Origin: Deltaproteobacteria bacterium
GTDB lineage: Bacteria > CALINM01
Assembly (NCBI GenBank): GCA_037442505.1
Contig: JBBIPZ010000011.1
Span: 1,500 to 65,499 of the forward strand
Length of the DNA: 64,000 nt
Direction: 5' to 3'
The position numbers and the translations under genes were made by a program. Shown in pieces: positions 1-20,273 of this stretch (position 1 is its first letter; each line of letters starts with the position of its first letter). The notes below the pieces were generated by a model. It was not told where the DNA came from. It searched no databases and was given only the letters and a program-made list of their open reading frames with translations.

Positions 1-1641
1 CACAATGTCCGACATGTCTGCAAGTTCTGTGAGGATTGTATCAATAACCACGCTGTAGATCTTTCTGTAGCCTTCTATCTGTCTTTTTACATCGGATGTG
101 CTGAATGGCCTGTTTGTACCATAAGACATCATGAATTCAGGCTCGTATTGCAATCCGTATGCCTTTGGATCAGCAAGTGTAAGGGCAACCTGCTGTGCTA
201 CATTGTGGGTTCCATGTGGGAAATAGACACTTTCCTGAAGATCTACCCTCTTTGGAGGATATTCGCACTTTGATGGCTCCATGTATTTTGGATTTTTATA
301 AACATCATGCAGATGCATGCCACCCACTGCGTCAAAGGCACCTACAAGCATGAGTACGATCTGTCTTGCCCTGTTATTCTGCACACCATATTCATGAGCA
401 CTCATACCACGGAAGGTATGTATCGCTACAGGACGGTATCTCAGAACCTTACCCTCTTTTACAACAGTTGCGCCAATCTGGGCGTGTTCACCAAACTCCT
501 TTGCTATCCTTTTAATCGTCCCAGCAGGCACACCCGTAACTTCCTCTGCATACTGAGGAGTTATATCTTTTATTGATTCTTTAAACACCTCAAAGGCTGT
601 CTTACAGGGCTTGCCATTAACAGTATAACTGCCTGAAATGGCTGGTTCGACATCTCCTTCGTATGGTCTGGCTGAATTTGATTTTTTATCCCAGATTAAG
701 GGCTTGCCGTCCTTTCTTACAAACTTTCCATCCTCGCCAACAAGCATGGGTGCATTGGTATAGGTAATGAGGAATTTTTCATCTACCTGATTATTCTTTA
801 TCAGCTCATTTGCCATGGCAAGGAGGAATACCGCATCTGTGGCAGGCCTTATTGGAATCCATTCGTTTGCCTTTGCTGCTGTATTTGAAAGCCTCGGCTC
901 AACCACAACATATTTCATTCCCCTTTCAATATTCTCAATAATCTTTCTGTCAAGCCACCTTGCCCATTGCTCTGCCTCCATCGGATTTGCACCCATGTTT
1001 ATGAAGTAATTACAATTGTCCACATCAGGCAGGAATGCATGATTACCCCAGGTTATCTCATCAGAGACATGTCTTGCAGCCTCACAAACGGTTGTCCTGT
1101 GGACTACATTGGGGGTGCCAAAAGCCTTACAAAATGCCTTTGGGAAATGGTCGCGCATTAGATATTTGCCATGACCATGCTGCCATACAAACTTGCTCGG
1201 ATTTTCAGCCTTGATCTTTTTAAGCCTCTTAACAATCTCATCAAAGGCCTCTTCGTAACTGATCTCGACCCATTTTGGGTCCTCTCCGGGACCTTTTTTA
1301 GCATTCGTTCTCTTAAGGGGCCTCTTTACCCTGTAAGGATTATAGGTGTCAAAGAGACCTGAAACACCTTTCGGACAGAGATGACCTGCATTCTGAGGAT
1401 TTTCAGGATTGCCGTAAATAGCCCTTATTACACCGTTAACCCTCCTCACCCTTATACCGCAGAAGTTTACGCACATCGTATCTGTGGACGGAATCAGGAC
1501 ATCCTCCTTCGGTGCAAAGGGAATCTTGCTCATGGATTCCTTTGCCATTACATCCGAGAGATTAAAAAACGTTTCTCCCATTGCTGCAAGCGCAGCAACT
1601 GCAGCTGAATTTTTCAAAAACTGTCTCCGGCTTATTGCCAT
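1..1641 (-). CDS. Tat-exported molybdopterin (Mo/W-bisPGD, DMSO reductase family) oxidoreductase catalytic subunit, Cys-ligated Psr/Arr/Sre/Soe-like lineage; 3' end truncated by window edge (547 codons visible)
   Basis: Not in the ORF track. Manually translated stop-free frame from ATG at 1641 (SD GGAGG at 1649-1653) to position 1. MAISRRQFLK twin-arginine signal; PSTDTMCVNFCG...x27...HLCPKG Fe-S motif; RTNAKKGPGEDPKWVEISYEEA; GTPNVVHRTTVC (Mo-ligand position); EPRLSNTAAKANEWIPIRPATD; EEVTGVPAGTIKRIAKEF; IDTILTELADMSDIV. The short plus-strand ORFs listed over 307-1608 are antisense shadows. Confidence 0.95.
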   Translation of the reverse strand, partial: MAISRRQFLKNSAAVAALAAMGETFFNLSDVMAKESMSKIPFAPKEDVLIPSTDTMCVNFCGIRVRRVNGVIRAIYGNPENPQNAGHLCPKGVSGLFDTYNPYRVKRPLKRTNAKKGPGEDPKWVEISYEEAFDEIVKRLKKIKAENPSKFVWQHGHGKYLMRDHFPKAFCKAFGTPNVVHRTTVCEAARHVSDEITWGNHAFLPDVDNCNYFINMGANPMEAEQWARWLDRKIIENIERGMKYVVVEPRLSNTAAKANEWIPIRPATDAVFLLAMANELIKNNQVDEKFLITYTNAPMLVGEDGKFVRKDGKPLIWDKKSNSARPYEGDVEPAISGSYTVNGKPCKTAFEVFKESIKDITPQYAEEVTGVPAGTIKRIAKEFGEHAQIGATVVKEGKVLRYRPVAIHTFRGMSAHEYGVQNNRARQIVLMLVGAFDAVGGMHLHDVYKNPKYMEPSKCEYPPKRVDLQESVYFPHGTHNVAQQVALTLADPKAYGLQYEPEFMMSYGTNRPFSTSDVKRQIEGYRKIYSVVIDTILTELADMSDIV

Positions 1642-1786: not shown

Positions 1787-1801
1787 ACAACTTTCATGCC
1801 A
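1787..1801 (-). promoter_or_regulatory. Putative sigma54 (-24/-12) promoter for the molybdoenzyme gene
   Basis: Minus strand TGGCATGAAAGTTGT: GG-N10-GT, one mismatch (-12 C to T) from TGGCAC-N5-TTGC; ends about 145 nt upstream of the ATG. Confidence 0.55.
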
Positions 1802-2577: not shown

Positions 2578-3912
2578 CTATTCAATTCCATACTCTTTAA
2601 TTTTGTAATGAATAGAACGAGGGCTAATTTCAAGAAGCTTTGCAGCTTTTAGTCTATTACCATTTGTAAGAGTAAGAGCCTTTTTTATGTAATCTCGTTC
2701 TACATCTTCAATAACCTTTTTTAGAGAGAGGATTGAAGAATCAACCTTTTCTGAATTGATATTTTCTCTTATAAACATATAATCTGGCAAATCATCAATA
2801 TCAATTAGATTATCATTGGAGAATATCAAGATGCGGTCAATTACATTTCTAAGCTCTCTAAAATTACCAAACCATGGATAATTTAGTAACACAGATAATG
2901 CGTCTTTTGATATCTCTTTCTTTACCTTATTTAATCTCAGGTTGACATAAGCAACTATGTCTTCCTTCCTTTCTCTCAAAGGTGGTATATGAATTGGAAT
3001 GACGTTAAGTCTGTAATAAAGATCATTTCTAAACCTGCCTTCATCTACAAGTGCTTTTAAATCTTTATTTGTAGCGGATATTATTCTAACATCTACCTTG
3101 ATTGTTTTAACATCACCAACAGGTCTAATCTCTCCATCTTCAAGAAATCTTAAAAGTTTACTCTGTAACGACTCACTCATCTCAGATATCTCATCCAGAA
3201 AACACGTACCACCATCTGCATATTCGAAAAGTCCCCTTTTTGGTTTAGTTGCATCGGTGAAAGCACCCCTCGCATACCCAAAAACTTCGCTTTCTAATAG
3301 ATTTTCTGGAATCGCCGCACAGTTAATTGCTACAAAAGGTTTAGATGCACGATGACTTTTCTGATGCAGAAGATGTGCAATAACTTCTTTTCCCACACCA
3401 CTCTCTCCTGTTATAAGCACAGGTTGCCTGTATGGAGCCACCTTTTCGACAGCCGCTATAACATTCTTAATTGCTGAACTTTCGAAAATAGTATTATCCA
3501 TTAACATTTGATTTGACTGCCATTTAAGCAATGTATTTTCTTTAATAAGACGTTGTCTTTCTTCAGCCTTTTTGATGGCAATTATAACTTCGTCTGTTTT
3601 GAAAGGTTTAGATATATAGTCGTAAGCACCTCTACGTATGACTTCTACGGCAGTTTCAACAGAACCAAAAGACGTCATCATGATGATTGTCAAGGAAAGT
3701 TCAAGTTTTTTAACCTCGTCTAAAAATACGAAACCATCCATTTCCGGCATTTTAATATCACAAAGCAAAATATCAAAAAGCTCATTTTTAACCTTCTCCA
3801 GACCAATAGCACCATTTTCAGCCATATCAACATCATAACCAGCTTTTTCAAGAACCTTTTTTAACATCTGTCTGATGCTTAATTCATCATCTATAACCAA
3901 TATTTTAGCCAA
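2578..3912 (-). CDS. Sigma54-dependent response regulator (REC-AAA+-HTH; AtoC/ZraR/PilR-like)
   Basis: N-terminal receiver (VIDDE, LLCDIKMP, DYISKPF), Walker A GESGVGKE, GAFTDA, LDEI, RFRNDLYYRLNV, C-terminal GNRLKAAKLLEISPRSIHYKIK. Confidence 0.93.
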   Translation of the reverse strand: MAKILVIDDELSIRQMLKKVLEKAGYDVDMAENGAIGLEKVKNELFDILLCDIKMPEMDGFVFLDEVKKLELSLTIIMMTSFGSVETAVEVIRRGAYDYISKPFKTDEVIIAIKKAEERQRLIKENTLLKWQSNQMLMDNTIFESSAIKNVIAAVEKVAPYRQPVLITGESGVGKEVIAHLLHQKSHRASKPFVAINCAAIPENLLESEVFGYARGAFTDATKPKRGLFEYADGGTCFLDEISEMSESLQSKLLRFLEDGEIRPVGDVKTIKVDVRIISATNKDLKALVDEGRFRNDLYYRLNVIPIHIPPLRERKEDIVAYVNLRLNKVKKEISKDALSVLLNYPWFGNFRELRNVIDRILIFSNDNLIDIDDLPDYMFIRENINSEKVDSSILSLKKVIEDVERDYIKKALTLTNGNRLKAAKLLEISPRSIHYKIKEYGIE

Positions 3913-5326
3913 TTTGCTCCTCCAGACCTTTTAAGAAAATTTTAAATATTGCCCCTTTATCGCTATTCTCAAATTGTATCTTCCCGCCATGCCTTTCAAC
4001 AAGTGTAAGGACTACACTTAAACCAAGTCCTGTGCCTTTGCCAGGTGGTTTGGTTGTAAAAAAAGGTTCAAATATCTTGTCTTTGATCTCATCCGGAACT
4101 CCTCCACCTTCATCTGAAATCGTAATTATAAGCATATCGCCTTCTAATTTCGAAGAAATCGTGATACTTCCGCCTTCAGGAGTAACATCAATTGCGTTAA
4201 TAAGTAAATTGAGAAACACCTGCTTAAGTGCCTCGCCGTTAAAATTAACTGGCATACTTTCTTTAAAATCATTAATAAGTTTAATCTTTTTAAAGTCCTT
4301 CTGCGGTGTCAAAAGTCTAATTGTTTCATCAAGTATATCGCGTGGGTTGCAGATTTCCAAAATATCGTCTTTATGGTTTCTTGCAAAGTTAAGCAGGTCT
4401 CTAATAATACGATTTATTCTTTCAGTCTCATCAAGTATGAGCTTCAATATATTTTTGTCTTCTTCATCTTTAGCATTGTCAATCATAAAAGAAAGATACC
4501 CAATTATACTTGTTAGTGGATTGCCAATTTCATGCGCTAATCCTGCCGCCAAACGACCAACTGTAGCCATTTTTTCAGAAAAAACAATTTCTTCCTGCGC
4601 AGTTTTAAGAGCTTCGTTAGTTTTTGAAAGTTTTTCTATCGTATTTTTCAGATCATTTCTATAATTTTCTAAATAGTCGCTCATTTGATTAAAGTGAGAA
4701 TACAATACATCCCATTCCTCTATATTAATGTATGAAAGTTTTTCACCAAAATTTCCACTTCCTACTTTTAAATGAGCATTTTTCAATAATTCAAATGGTG
4801 TGAAAAGCCTTTTTTTGTAGATAAAATAGGCAAAGGCTGTCAATGTTAATAGGCAAACTGCCCCAAAAGGCAAAAAAATCAAAATATCTTTTTTAATCAT
4901 CTTTTTTTCTACATCAAAATCTCTTTTTATAACTAAAAACAGAGGTTTTCCTTTTATATATACAGTTTGATAAACTGTAATCGAGGGGAAAAACAAATTA
5001 TTACCGACTATAGTGTCAGCCACTCCCAGCTTAATTTTTTCTTTATCAATTAAATTAACGCCAGATATAAGCTCTTTCGTAACAGGATCATATAATCCAT
5101 ACGAAACTCCAACAGGCAGAAATAATAGAATTTGCTCAATTTTATCAGGATTGTATTTTTCTGCATCGTAAAAGATTTTTTGCAAATATACGGTTTCTAA
5201 TTCAACCTGCCTCTTTATTGATATTTTAAATGTAGCAAAAGATGTGATAAATATGGCAAGAAACGATAACAAAAAAACACCAATTATTAGTTCTGTTTTT
5301 ATATTGCCAGTATAATTTTTTGCCAT
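3905..5326 (-). CDS. Membrane sensor histidine kinase (2 TM, HAMP, HisKA, HATPase), cognate of the downstream regulator
   Basis: Two hydrophobic segments; H-box LAHEIGNPL; N-box LNLLINAIDV; DEGGGV; FFTTKPPGKGTGLGL; overlaps the start of the regulator. Confidence 0.93.
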   Translation of the reverse strand: MAKNYTGNIKTELIIGVFLLSFLAIFITSFATFKISIKRQVELETVYLQKIFYDAEKYNPDKIEQILLFLPVGVSYGLYDPVTKELISGVNLIDKEKIKLGVADTIVGNNLFFPSITVYQTVYIKGKPLFLVIKRDFDVEKKMIKKDILIFLPFGAVCLLTLTAFAYFIYKKRLFTPFELLKNAHLKVGSGNFGEKLSYINIEEWDVLYSHFNQMSDYLENYRNDLKNTIEKLSKTNEALKTAQEEIVFSEKMATVGRLAAGLAHEIGNPLTSIIGYLSFMIDNAKDEEDKNILKLILDETERINRIIRDLLNFARNHKDDILEICNPRDILDETIRLLTPQKDFKKIKLINDFKESMPVNFNGEALKQVFLNLLINAIDVTPEGGSITISSKLEGDMLIITISDEGGGVPDEIKDKIFEPFFTTKPPGKGTGLGLSVVLTLVERHGGKIQFENSDKGAIFKIFLKGLEEQIG

Positions 5327-5384
5327 AAAATAATCCTAAAAATCTTAGGTTTATCAAATATTTTATACTAAAAAAGCAGAAAAA

Positions 5385-5393
5385 TGATATAAT
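5385..5393 (+). promoter_or_regulatory. Extended -10 promoter (TGnTATAAT) for clpS-clpA-aat
   Basis: TGATATAAT at 5385-5393, followed 6 nt later by the clpS ATG at 5400; no SD. Confidence 0.6.
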
Positions 5394-5399
5394 ATAATT

Positions 5400-5705
5400 A
5401 TGGATTTTTATGAATTAGTAGAAAAAAGCCAAAAAGAATCTGTTAAAACAAAAAAGCCTGATCTTTATAACGTTTTTCTTCTAAATGATGATTATACTAC
5501 TATGGATTTTGTAGTGGACATACTTATGTCTATTTTTCATAAAAATCAGATGGAAGCCACCAAAATAATGCTTCATGTTCATAATAACGGAAAGGGTTTA
5601 GCAGGAACATATATTAAAGATATTGCTGAAAGTAAGGTTAAAACTGTCCACAAACTCGCAAGAAAAAATGGTTTTCCATTAAGATGCAGTATCGAAAAAG
5701 AGTAA
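5400..5705 (+). CDS. clpS: ATP-dependent Clp protease adaptor ClpS
   Basis: YNVFLLNDDYTTMDFVV, HNNGKGLAG, FPLRCSIE; directly upstream of clpA. Confidence 0.96.
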   Translation: MDFYELVEKSQKESVKTKKPDLYNVFLLNDDYTTMDFVVDILMSIFHKNQMEATKIMLHVHNNGKGLAGTYIKDIAESKVKTVHKLARKNGFPLRCSIEKE

Positions 5706-5712
5706 CAAAATT

Positions 5713-7977
5713 ATGATAAATAAAGATCTCGAAATTATTATTGACGCAACTTTAAGAGAAGCAAAATTAGAGGGGCATGAGTATGCAACTGTTGAGCACA
5801 TACTTTATGCTGTTCTCCACGATGATTATGGTTCAGAGATTATCTTTCAATGTAAAGGTAACGTTGAACAAATGAAATCTGATTTAAAAGAGTTCTTTGC
5901 GGAATATATACCTCATGTTAAAGAAATAAGTGATTCAATGCCAATACTCTCATCTGGCTTTCAACGTGTTATTCAAACAGCAATAAGAAACGTACAGGCA
6001 GCTGGAAAAAAAGAAGTGGATGCTGGCGATTTGTTAAATGCAATATATTCTGAAACCGATTCTTATGCCTTAAATATTTTAAAAGCTCAAGGTATAACAA
6101 AGCTGGACATATTAAGATACATTTCTCACGGTATATCTAAAATACGTAATGATTATACTGATTATACATCTCACCAACATACTGAACATCAAAACAGACC
6201 CAAAAAAGAATTTACAAAAGATCCGCTTTCACAATTTAGTGTAGAATTAGTTGAATTAGCCTCAAAAGGCAAAATTTCTCCTGTAATTGGAAGAGAGTTA
6301 GAAATTGAGACTGCAATACACGTATTGTCAAGACGTAGAAAGAATAACGTTGTTTTTGTTGGAGAGCCAGGTGTTGGCAAAACCGCAATTGTAGAAGGGC
6401 TAGCTTTAAAAATATCAAAGGGAGACGTACCTGAAATTTTAAAAAATACAAAAATTTATTCGTTAGATTTAGGAGCGATGCTTGCTGGCACTCAATTTAG
6501 AGGTGATTTTGAAGCTCGTCTAAAAGGCACAGTTCAGGCATTATCCAGAATCCCTAATGCAATAGTATTTATCGATGAGATACACACGCTTGTTGGTGCT
6601 GGAGCATCGTCAGGCGGCTCTATGGATGCATCAAACATTTTAAAACCTTATCTAAATAGCGGTCAACTACATTGTATAGGCGCAACCACTTACGAAGAAT
6701 ATAAAAAGTTCTTTGATAAGGATCGTGCACTTTCAAGACGTTTCCAGAAGATTGACGTTTTAGAGCCTACGGTTGAAGAGACTTATAAAATCTTGTCTGG
6801 TCTGAAAAAATATTATGAAGAGTTTCACGGTGTCACATATACTGATAAAGCTTTACGTTTAGCAGTGGAACTATCTGCAAAATATATTAATGATAGACAT
6901 TTACCAGACAAGGCAATAGATATCATTGACGAAGTTGGTGCAAAGGTTAAGCTTTCCAACAGAGTGAATAAGGTTGTAAAGTCTAAAGATATTGAAAATA
7001 TAGTATCGAAGATTGCAAGAATACCAGTAAAAACTGTCTCTACAACCGAAACCAACAAACTGGTAAATTTAGAAGAAGAGCTTAAAAACGTTATATTTGG
7101 ACAGGATGAAGCTGTTAGGTCTGTTGTGCAAGCGATCAAACGCTCACGCGCAGGATTGGGCAACCAGAGCAGTCCAATAGGCTCATTTCTTTTTGTCGGT
7201 CCAACGGGCGTGGGTAAAACTGAACTTGCAAAACAGCTGGCAAACCTTTTAGGGATACATTTTTTGCGTTTTGATATGAGTGAATATATGGAAAAACATA
7301 CTGTTTCACGATTAATTGGTGCACCACCCGGCTATATTGGTTTTGATCAGGGTGGTTTACTTACTGACGAAATAAGAAAGTTTCCTCACACAGTTTTATT
7401 ATTAGACGAGATTGAGAAGGCACATCCAGACGTGTTCAATATACTGCTTCAGGTGATGGATTATGCCACATTAACAGATAATAACGGTAAAAAGGCTGAT
7501 TTCAGGAATGTTATTTTGATTATGACATCAAATGCCGGTGCAAAAGAAATGGAGAATACTACTATCGGTTTTGGCAACAGAATAGAAGAGCATAAGAAAG
7601 AAGGTCTTACTAATATTCAAAAACTTTTTTCACCAGAATTTAGAAACCGCTTAGATGCAATCATCACATTTAATCACTTGAACGAAAAAATATTGTTAGA
7701 GATTGTTGATAAATTTATCAACGAAATCAGGTTACAACTTGCTGATAAAAAGATTGATATTTATATCTCAGACGACGCTAAAAAATATCTGGCTTTAAAA
7801 GGCTATGATAAACGTTACGGTGCAAGACCGCTCAGACGTCTTATTGAAGCCGAAATAACCAACAAACTAACAGACGAAATACTTTTTGGAACACTCAAAA
7901 AAGGCGGTTCAGTAACAATCAATCTTGTAGAAAATAAGTTAAAGCTCCAATTCAATGGTAGTATTTTTAAAAACTAA
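5713..7977 (+). CDS. clpA: ATP-dependent Clp protease ATP-binding subunit ClpA
   Basis: N-domain HEYATVEHIL; two AAA+ modules (GEPGVGKT, GPTGVGKT); FDMSEYMEKHTVSRLIGAPPGY; IGF loop; 754 aa with no ClpB-type middle domain. Confidence 0.96.
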   Translation: MINKDLEIIIDATLREAKLEGHEYATVEHILYAVLHDDYGSEIIFQCKGNVEQMKSDLKEFFAEYIPHVKEISDSMPILSSGFQRVIQTAIRNVQAAGKKEVDAGDLLNAIYSETDSYALNILKAQGITKLDILRYISHGISKIRNDYTDYTSHQHTEHQNRPKKEFTKDPLSQFSVELVELASKGKISPVIGRELEIETAIHVLSRRRKNNVVFVGEPGVGKTAIVEGLALKISKGDVPEILKNTKIYSLDLGAMLAGTQFRGDFEARLKGTVQALSRIPNAIVFIDEIHTLVGAGASSGGSMDASNILKPYLNSGQLHCIGATTYEEYKKFFDKDRALSRRFQKIDVLEPTVEETYKILSGLKKYYEEFHGVTYTDKALRLAVELSAKYINDRHLPDKAIDIIDEVGAKVKLSNRVNKVVKSKDIENIVSKIARIPVKTVSTTETNKLVNLEEELKNVIFGQDEAVRSVVQAIKRSRAGLGNQSSPIGSFLFVGPTGVGKTELAKQLANLLGIHFLRFDMSEYMEKHTVSRLIGAPPGYIGFDQGGLLTDEIRKFPHTVLLLDEIEKAHPDVFNILLQVMDYATLTDNNGKKADFRNVILIMTSNAGAKEMENTTIGFGNRIEEHKKEGLTNIQKLFSPEFRNRLDAIITFNHLNEKILLEIVDKFINEIRLQLADKKIDIYISDDAKKYLALKGYDKRYGARPLRRLIEAEITNKLTDEILFGTLKKGGSVTINLVENKLKLQFNGSIFKN

Positions 7978-16179: not shown

Positions 16180-16256
16180 GGAGCCGTAGTTCAGTCGGTT
16201 AGAACGCCTGCCTGTCACGCAGGAGGCCGCGAGTTCGAGTCTCGTCGGCTCCGCCA
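16180..16256 (+). tRNA. tRNA-Asp (GTC)
   Basis: Acceptor stem GGAGCCG/CGGCTCC, anticodon arm CCTGC-CTGTCAC-GCAGG, T-loop GTTCGAG, encoded CCA; 77 nt. Confidence 0.98.
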
Positions 16257-20183: not shown

Positions 20184-20273
20184 TGGCGGAGGGGGTGGGA
20201 TTCGAACCCACGTGCCCTTTAGGGGCAACCCGATTTCGAGTCGGGCCCGTTACGACCACTTCGGTACCCCTCC
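20184..20273 (-). tRNA. tRNA-Ser (CGA)
   Basis: GGAGGGG/CCCCTCC acceptor stem, anticodon arm CCCGA-CTCGAAA-TCGGG, long variable arm, GTTCGAATC, encoded CCA; 90 nt. Confidence 0.97.

Follow-up and report, generated by a model that had tools for sequence, protein, structure and literature searches.

An aspartate in place of the first FS0 cysteine in an unnamed, probably arsenic-related family of periplasmic molybdoenzymes

In oxidoreductases that carry molybdenum or tungsten on a bis-pyranopterin guanine dinucleotide cofactor (Mo/W-bisPGD), the iron-sulfur cluster FS0 is the gate for every electron that passes to or from the metal centre, and its ligands set both potential and spin state. The histidine ligand of nitrate reductase is the classic case of such a ligand effect. 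Precedents in this superfamily for an FS0 without four cysteines are the NarG-type enzymes, in which a His-ligated FS0 with x3 spacing goes together with Asp as the Mo ligand, and AioA, whose [3Fe-4S] cluster has no fourth ligand (Ser) and whose partner is a Rieske protein; neither NarG nor AioA has Asp at FS0. Unrelated folds supply examples of Asp-ligated [4Fe-4S] clusters, including Pyrococcus furiosus ferredoxin, the NB-protein of dark-operative protochlorophyllide oxidoreductase and Fnr of Bacillus subtilis, where Asp and Cys are interchangeable. Here, we analysed a 64,000-nucleotide stretch (the window) of contig JBBIPZ010000011.1 from a Deltaproteobacteria bacterium (NCBI GenBank assembly GCA_037442505.1; positions 1,500 to 65,499, forward strand), which at its left edge carries the gene for a catalytic (A) subunit with aspartate, Asp54, at the first FS0 ligand position. 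On balance, and with somewhat more confidence than doubt, we read its product as the soluble periplasmic Mo/W-bisPGD catalytic subunit of an unnamed family, with an Asp54-ligated FS0 and probably an arsenic oxyanion as substrate. What is new is thus an unusual FS0 ligand within a standard Mo/W-bisPGD architecture, found in a family that has no name and is probably related to arsenic.

The catalytic gene and its FS0 motif

At its left edge, the window holds on the minus strand (1-1641) an open frame of 547 codons, whose translation starts from an ATG at 1639-1641 and reaches the edge without a stop. Because no stop codon lies inside the window and the open reading frame (ORF) lister skips frames running off an end, the gene is missing from the ORF track, as an earlier note on this DNA had remarked. 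Its features are the following.

1-1641, minus strand: N-terminal 547 codons of the catalytic A subunit, a Mo/W-bisPGD oxidoreductase exported by the twin-arginine translocation (Tat) route (translation, Pfam); the window edge cuts the gene
1612-1629, minus strand: twin-arginine motif RRQFLK of the Tat signal (product begins MAISRRQFLK; signal about residues 1-33)
1375-1482, minus strand: FS0 motif D54-x2-C57-x3-C61-x27-C89 (translation; aligned to C-x2-C-x3-C-x27-C of ArrA, PsrA and ArxA)
1480-1482, minus strand: GAT codon of Asp54, in the place of the first FS0 cysteine (translation)
1162-1173, minus strand: H157-G-K-Y160, counterpart of the (R/K)GRY active-site motif of ArrA (alignment; conserved family-wide)
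1069-1101, minus strand: loop HRTTVCEAARH with Cys186 (TGT, 1084-1086), the predicted Mo/W ligand (aligned to ArrA Cys193)

Within the 547 residues, Pfam matches are to TAT_signal, Molybdop_Fe4S4 and Molybdopterin, and together with the Tat signal these bear out the earlier note's assignment to the periplasmic enzymes of the dimethyl sulfoxide reductase family. Full-length A subunits in relatives have about 856 residues. One of these, P0001, is 96% identical to the window protein and also has a Molydop_binding domain, whose coding sequence would fall beyond the window edge.

The sequence around the motif reads IPST-D54-TM-C57-VNF-C61-x27-C89-PKG, with TGC for C57 (1471-1473) and C61 (1459-1461) and TGT for C89 (1375-1377). 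The canonical FS0 motif of this enzyme group is C-x2-C-x3-C-x27-C (PMC2500031). Set against the general four-ligand pattern, (C/H)-x2-3-C-x3-C-x27-34-C, the window enzyme departs in its first ligand, which is Asp, and is canonical in its spacing and its other three cysteines. Moreover, D54 stands opposite the first FS0 cysteine of ArrA (PDB ID: 6cz7) in ungapped HMMER alignments, and opposite that of ArrA, PsrA and an ArxA in a MAFFT alignment. Translation and alignments therefore agree with what the earlier note had read from the sequence, namely D-x2-C-x3-C-x27-C with GAT at D54 (1375-1482 spans exactly D54 to C89 on the minus strand) and an Asp where Cys, selenocysteine or His would be usual.

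As for family membership, the closest solved structure is ArrA 6cz7 (phmmer, 1e-53; Foldseek search with an AlphaFold2 (AF2) model, E 7e-50 and template modelling score 0.72), followed by PsrA (PDB ID: 2vpw). The top NCBIfam model for full-length P0001 is PhsA with 288 bits, short of the cut-off of 694, and the ArrA model NF041714 gives 219 bits against a cut-off of 1600 (154 bits for the window fragment); the B partner of P0001 has ArrB as its best NCBIfam match, and likewise fails the cut-off (178 bits vs 450). Identity to bona fide ArxA is 33% and 26% in two segments. On clustering at 50% identity the family shrinks to a handful of representatives, and the next enzymes are 31-38% identical and have other FS0 spacings. 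The window enzyme is none of ArrA, ArxA and PsrA/PhsA; its family, so far without a name, branches beside them. Its invariant active-site signature consists of HGKY and HRTTxCEAARH around the Mo-ligand cysteine, Cys186, which is present in 46 of 46 aligned family sequences. Compared with ArrA, HGKY keeps the Gly, the basic residue and the Tyr of (R/K)GRY, and the pocket reads HRTTxCEAARH rather than SHSSVCAEAHK, in which His189, Ser190 and Lys198 form the arsenate pocket (6cz7 numbering). Judged from its residues, the basic active-site pocket of the family would suit an oxyanion.

Aspartate and cysteine at position 54

A protein search of 5.8 billion sequences gave 591 relatives, and the best 120 of these 591 (about 860 residues, 55-96% identity) were compared. 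Among them, 116 have a readable FS0 motif, with Asp in 25, Cys in 91 and no other residue. Asp is fixed in 27 protein clusters (24 full-length clusters at 90% identity and three fragments), and pairwise identities among the full-length Asp-type clusters range from 53 to 90%; a search with the N-terminal fragment to widen this sample returned only five proteins. All Asp forms among the compared relatives fall in one subclade with x27 spacing, and a large proteobacterial subclade combines x28 with Cys. In a neighbour-joining tree of 46 sequences, the x27 subclade is monophyletic, with 24 Asp and seven Cys members, and Asp is fixed throughout it apart from four Cys lineages (P0008; P0013; P0020/P0021/P0023; P0067/P0082). 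For each of these four, the nearest relative outside its own group is an Asp-type protein, and thus at least four Asp/Cys exchanges must have occurred. At the DNA level, GAT encodes the residue in all 17 Asp-type relative loci, 18 with the window gene, all from separate assemblies and with 71-91% nucleotide identity in the loci compared. Cys-type loci have TGT or TGC, so that each exchange takes two substitutions.

Asp54 cannot stem from a mutation private to one strain or from faulty sequencing or assembly, since 17 separately assembled loci share the GAT codon and 27 protein clusters the residue; we regard such an origin as practically inconceivable. The homologue comparison that the earlier note had proposed therefore yields a clade-wide Asp, and not the uniform Cys among close homologues that would have marked it as private. 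Nor is the variant one already characterised in a named family: in about 8.3 million searchable full-text papers and preprints, with subscription-only literature outside this scope, we found no description of Asp at FS0 or of a DxxCxxxC variant, and the same search returned no report of the A-B-C-D operon family described below.

Because the window is cut before the genes for the other subunits, the operon is described from relatives' loci, where the order is A-B-C-D. B is a four-cluster ferredoxin of about 218 residues and D is a TorD/NarJ-type chaperone. C (30 clusters, P0121-P0150; for example, L001:13254-13607) is encoded as a protein of about 116 residues with a signal of the Sec type. 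Its two CxxCH motifs, together with His54 and His57, both invariant, identify it as a dihaem cytochrome c (of ~90 residues). For C, no Pfam family scores above threshold, each source that names it calls it a hypothetical protein, and its AF2 model (predicted local distance difference test score, pLDDT, 55) is too poor for a fold search. An NrfD-type subunit was found in none of the family operons examined. Proteobacterial operons add a large Fe-S protein, plus either FccAB-like genes or a NapC/NirT tetrahaem quinol dehydrogenase.

The only invariant cysteines of the A subunit are 57, 61, 89 and 186, and we found no compensating cysteine in the Asp-type proteins, where Cys171 is enriched yet missing in 3 of 24. 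With no cysteine specific to the Asp form, FS0 should be either a 3Cys/1Asp [4Fe-4S] cluster or a three-Cys [3Fe-4S] cluster. These were the two alternatives that the earlier note had put forward, and the pattern of Asp or Cys and nothing else favours the former. In fact, so strict an alternation argues for a required metal-binding side chain at position 54, and hence Asp54 most likely ligates FS0. In the mechanism that we propose, the Asp54 carboxylate would bind one iron of FS0, and electrons would move, in either direction, between Mo/W and FS0, then through FS1-FS4 in B and the two c-type haems in C to further cytochromes of the periplasm or the membrane. With oxygen as a ligand, FS0 should differ in potential, in spin state and in how easily it loses one iron, and natural Asp/Cys pairs, such as P0001 and P0008 with 87% identity, could be used to measure that effect on a molybdoenzyme electron relay.

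The B subunit offers an internal comparison. In the x27 clade and one archaeal locus, its cysteine group III reads C-K-G-[R/K/A]-[K/R]-Y-C-x3-C-P, with the second Cys lost (L001, 12582-13238; L002; L006-L014; L020-L022), and the proteobacterial B subunits retain C-x-G-C. Such a three-Cys group resembles the Trp variant of NarH and the C102 variants of Escherichia coli DmsB, which give a [3Fe-4S] FS4, and predicts an FS4 of the NarH kind here. A coupling between Asp at FS0 and the three-Cys group III was considered and rejected, as group III of B still has three Cys in L021 and L022, two loci whose A subunit has gone back to Cys.

The main alternative is that FS0, like that of AioA, is a [3Fe-4S] cluster with C57, C61 and C89 as its sole ligands, and that a non-ligating Asp54 is kept on other grounds, for example hydrogen bonding or charge near the cluster or the pterin. 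Three cysteines do suffice for such a cluster, the B subunits of these enzymes seem to manage with a three-Cys site, and Asp-ligated clusters of ferredoxins easily shed their fourth iron. However, a dispensable position should drift in the way of the replaced residue in B, where the variation (R/K/A) is what is expected of a truly unliganded [3Fe-4S] position; instead, only Asp or Cys occurs in 116 sequences, through at least four exchanges, and we consider an empty site unlikely. Two further points count against Asp54 as a ligand. The AF2 model of the A subunit (pLDDT 88) holds no cofactors and so gives no Asp-Fe geometry, and in P0153 (872 residues, 42% identical to P0001) an Asp-type FS0 (PSV-D-LM-C-PVS-C-x27-C) accompanies decay of the catalytic site, with Gly replacing the Mo-ligand Cys and the HGKY motif lacking. 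P0153 may be a non-catalytic paralogue, and taken further it would suggest that Asp marks an FS0 in decay, in a pseudo-enzyme (QrcB and ActB are examples) whose redox function is fading or already gone. We think this very improbable for the window gene: C57, C61, C89, C186 and the active-site motifs are invariant in its clade, genes for the partners B, C and D and for cofactor synthesis are retained, and the operon moves between phyla at about 90% identity. An FS0 ligated by three cysteines and Asp54 thus remains our preferred assignment.

Gene neighbourhoods and the likely substrate

A survey of relatives' loci covered about 16 distinct contexts and gave six recurring kinds of neighbour. A periplasmic binding protein (X) is encoded upstream, together with a kinase and a sigma-54 regulator, in L006, L007, L008, L009/L014/L020, L018 and L028. 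The best matches of X are ArrX (1e-55) and AioX (1e-42), its first domain scores far above PtxB/PhnD, and it is 39% identical to the putative ArxX of Sulfuricystis. According to one study, tested AioX, ArxX and ArrX members bind only arsenite or arsenate/phosphate, and neither thiosulfate nor tetrathionate, and AioR and ArxR are sigma-54 regulators of the AtoC type, which ArrR is not (PMC5908839). In three loci (L007:5269-7002, L020:5215-6981 and L028:3217-4926), X is a tandem of two Phosphonate-bd domains of about 580 residues, the first half being most like ArrX/AioX and the second most like the phosphite-binding PtxB (4e-36).

Arsenic resistance (ars) genes, that is ArsR, Acr3, ArsP, ArsC and thioredoxin, are found near the operon in L001, L005, L011/L025 and L013, the last being an archaeal metagenome-assembled genome (MAG); these loci represent four distant genomes, one of them an archaeon. 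In Sulfuricystis multivorans J5B (L005, AP018718.1, 20086-42665), a Cys-type family operon lies directly downstream of arxB2ABCD, and is followed by a cytochrome c with a flavocytochrome c sulfide dehydrogenase (FccAB-like), TusA, ArsR, ArsC and Acr3. The arx cluster of this strain has been described (PMC6549141, PMC6397845), and the passages retrieved by term searches from these two papers make no mention of the operon beside it. A phosphate-selective porin (Porin_O_P, 3.6e-27) or porin-like gene stands in or beside the operon in L002, L009/L014/L020, L021 and L022, at the following positions in four of these loci.

L020:14327-15574, porin or porin-like gene beside A-B-C-D
L002:6988-8013, porin or porin-like gene beside A-B-C-D
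L021:4518-5609, porin or porin-like gene beside A-B-C-D
L022:12304-12573, porin or porin-like gene beside A-B-C-D

Several loci have predicted GG-N10-GC sigma-54 promoters upstream of A, and TGGCAT-N5-TTGCT elements, better than the one in the window, precede A in L005, L009, L014 and L020. Other neighbours (FmdE, a ModE-like helix-turn-helix protein, MoeA, MobA/B, MoaA and a MOT1 transporter) are a dedicated cofactor supply.

In the window itself, the region upstream of the A gene contains the following.

1642-2577: AT-rich (28.8% GC) non-coding spacer of 936 bp in front of the A gene; L001 shares the 400 bp or so that adjoin the gene
1787-1801, minus strand: putative sigma-54-like -24/-12 element TGGCATGAAAGTTGT (GG-N10-GT, imperfect), 146 nt upstream of the ATG
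2578-3912, minus strand: sigma-54-dependent (AtoC/NtrC-type) response regulator, the next gene upstream of A, 42% identical to the regulator by the Caldimicrobium family operon
3905-5326, minus strand: sensor histidine kinase (HisKA and HATPase_c), overlapping the regulator gene by 8 nt (3905-3912)

Given this overlap, the kinase and regulator genes are likely co-translated. It is plausible that the pair controls the imported operon, but the host-like composition of the regulator gene makes this link uncertain. No sensor domain was recognised in the N-terminal half of the kinase; kinases beside relatives' operons are of the sCache/HAMP kind. The spacer has no ORF of more than 50 residues, no Rfam match to a molybdenum cofactor or other riboswitch, and nothing detectable by tblastn of a decayed porin or X gene. 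Rfam matches in the window are confined to two tRNA genes, at 16180-16253 (plus strand) and 20187-20273 (minus strand).

The A gene has 44.5% GC and 43% GC at third codon positions (GC3), compared with a GC3 of about 26% for the regulator, kinase and clpA genes (2578-7977) and 34.9% GC for the window as a whole. Its closest locus, L001, is 91% identical in nucleotides and lies in an unrelated neighbourhood of arsenic and chromate resistance, the homology stopping about 400 bp upstream of the A gene. Near-identical proteins are found in MAGs of different phyla (Thermodesulfovibrionales, Caldimicrobium, Thermodesulfobacteriota and Syntrophaceae) and in hot-spring, subsurface and sediment metagenomes, and this spread shows the operon to be horizontally mobile. 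For the window copy, the GC contrast and the relatives of about 90% identity in other phyla point to recent horizontal acquisition. Hosts of the Asp clade are Thermodesulfovibrionales, Thermodesulfobacteriota, Caldimicrobium and similar hot-spring or subsurface anaerobes.

Taken together, the X sensors, sigma-54 regulators, porins and ars genes point to an arsenic oxyanion, and we therefore consider arsenate reduction or arsenite oxidation the probable reaction, on the basis of gene context. Oxidation would agree better with sigma-54 regulators of the AioR/ArxR type, with a c-type cytochrome as partner and with an FS4 of the [3Fe-4S] type; an ArrX-like sensor and hosts that are strict anaerobes speak rather for arsenate reduction. 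Several points weigh against arsenic. The assignment is one of guilt by association, several loci have neither ars genes nor the X-kinase-regulator system, the arsenate-binding residues of ArrA are not conserved one-for-one, and the failed curated cut-offs for ArrA, ArrB and PhsA tell against it as well. Moreover, the window has only the kinase and the sigma-54 regulator, with no X protein or porin, and this pair is host-like in composition (regulator GC3 26%), unlike the imported A gene. A different substrate, whether a sulfur compound (polysulfide, thiosulfate or tetrathionate) or another oxyanion, would make the arsenic neighbours coincidental island cargo, and is independent of the question of Asp54. 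It gains from the best NCBIfam score being to PhsA (288 bits), from sulfur-cycling hosts, from the FccAB-like, TusA or DsrE genes that adjoin some operons and from the many loci without ars genes. Nevertheless, we hold it to be rather unlikely, given that NrfD/PsrC-type subunits are lacking, that X belongs to the AioX/ArxX/ArrX subfamily, whose tested members bind neither thiosulfate nor tetrathionate (PMC5908839), and that phosphate-type porins and a basic active-site pocket fit a phosphate-like oxyanion.

A more far-reaching proposal, which we put forward tentatively and think somewhat more apt to fail than to hold, is that the A-B-C-D family is a third respiratory arsenic oxidoreductase lineage beside Aio and Arr/Arx, acting on arsenate, arsenite or thioarsenate and switched by ArrX/AioX-type sensors. 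In thermophilic anaerobes its FS0 would have been retuned by a Cys-to-Asp swap alongside a [3Fe-4S] FS4, giving the first Asp-ligated FS0 in the superfamily. Thioarsenate is named here by analogy with thiosulfate reductase and because of the neighbouring FccAB-like genes. In organisms from hot springs, the subsurface and sediments, this unannotated family recurs with arsenic sensors, arsenic resistance genes and porins of the phosphate type. As a new arsenic-transforming enzyme it would be relevant to arsenic mobility in groundwater and geothermal systems, and would affect marker surveys that count only aioA, arxA and arrA. Some arsenate respirers are known to have no arrA (PMC2500031). Two literature leads were followed. 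The 'alternative arsenite oxidation' candidate of Thioalkalivibrio was rejected as a family member, being SoeABC, and no link could be made between the family and the deep Arr/Arx-adjacent clade described in a paper on Methanoperedenaceae.

Comparison with described enzymes

AioA has a C-x2-C-x3-C-x70-S [3Fe-4S] motif and a Rieske partner, neither of which is found here: the window enzyme has Cys89 at x27, and the family a four-cluster ferredoxin partner. With the Asp-ligated [4Fe-4S] proteins of other folds, the family shares three cysteines and one Asp at a site where homologues have Cys, a likeness in sequence. NapAB resembles the family in being soluble and periplasmic and in pairing a Mo-bisPGD enzyme with a dihaem cytochrome c of small size; unlike in the family, no B ferredoxin stands between FS0 and the haems in NapA, and the family's C subunit has no Pfam match to NapB.

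PsrA and PhsA (Thermus thermophilus PsrA, PDB ID: 2vpw) share the FS0 spacing and the Cys ligand to Mo. In contrast to PsrABC/PhsABC, the family has no membrane quinol subunit, its third gene encodes a dihaem cytochrome c, and Asp is found at FS0. ArxAB (arxB2ABCD with arxXSR) is at a similar distance and, as is seen beside several relatives' operons, has an X-S-R system with a sigma-54 regulator of the AtoC type. However, the XGRGWG motif of ArxA is absent from the family, ArxA has Cys at the first FS0 position, and the family operons lack an NrfD-type ArxC and, in the Asp clade, ArxB2.

The closest resemblance in structure is to ArrAB (Shewanella sp. ANA-3, PDB ID: 6cz7). Both are Tat-exported, soluble periplasmic enzymes with x2/x3/x27 FS0 spacing, a Cys ligand to Mo, a four-cluster B partner, a TorD-like chaperone and no obligatory membrane subunit. 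Unlike ArrA, to which its identity is about 22-23%, the family has Asp as first FS0 ligand, HGKY where ArrA has RGRY, and HRTTxCEAARH where ArrA has SHSSVCAEAHK; it also adds a dihaem cytochrome c subunit and, in the Asp clade, has a B subunit with a three-Cys group III.

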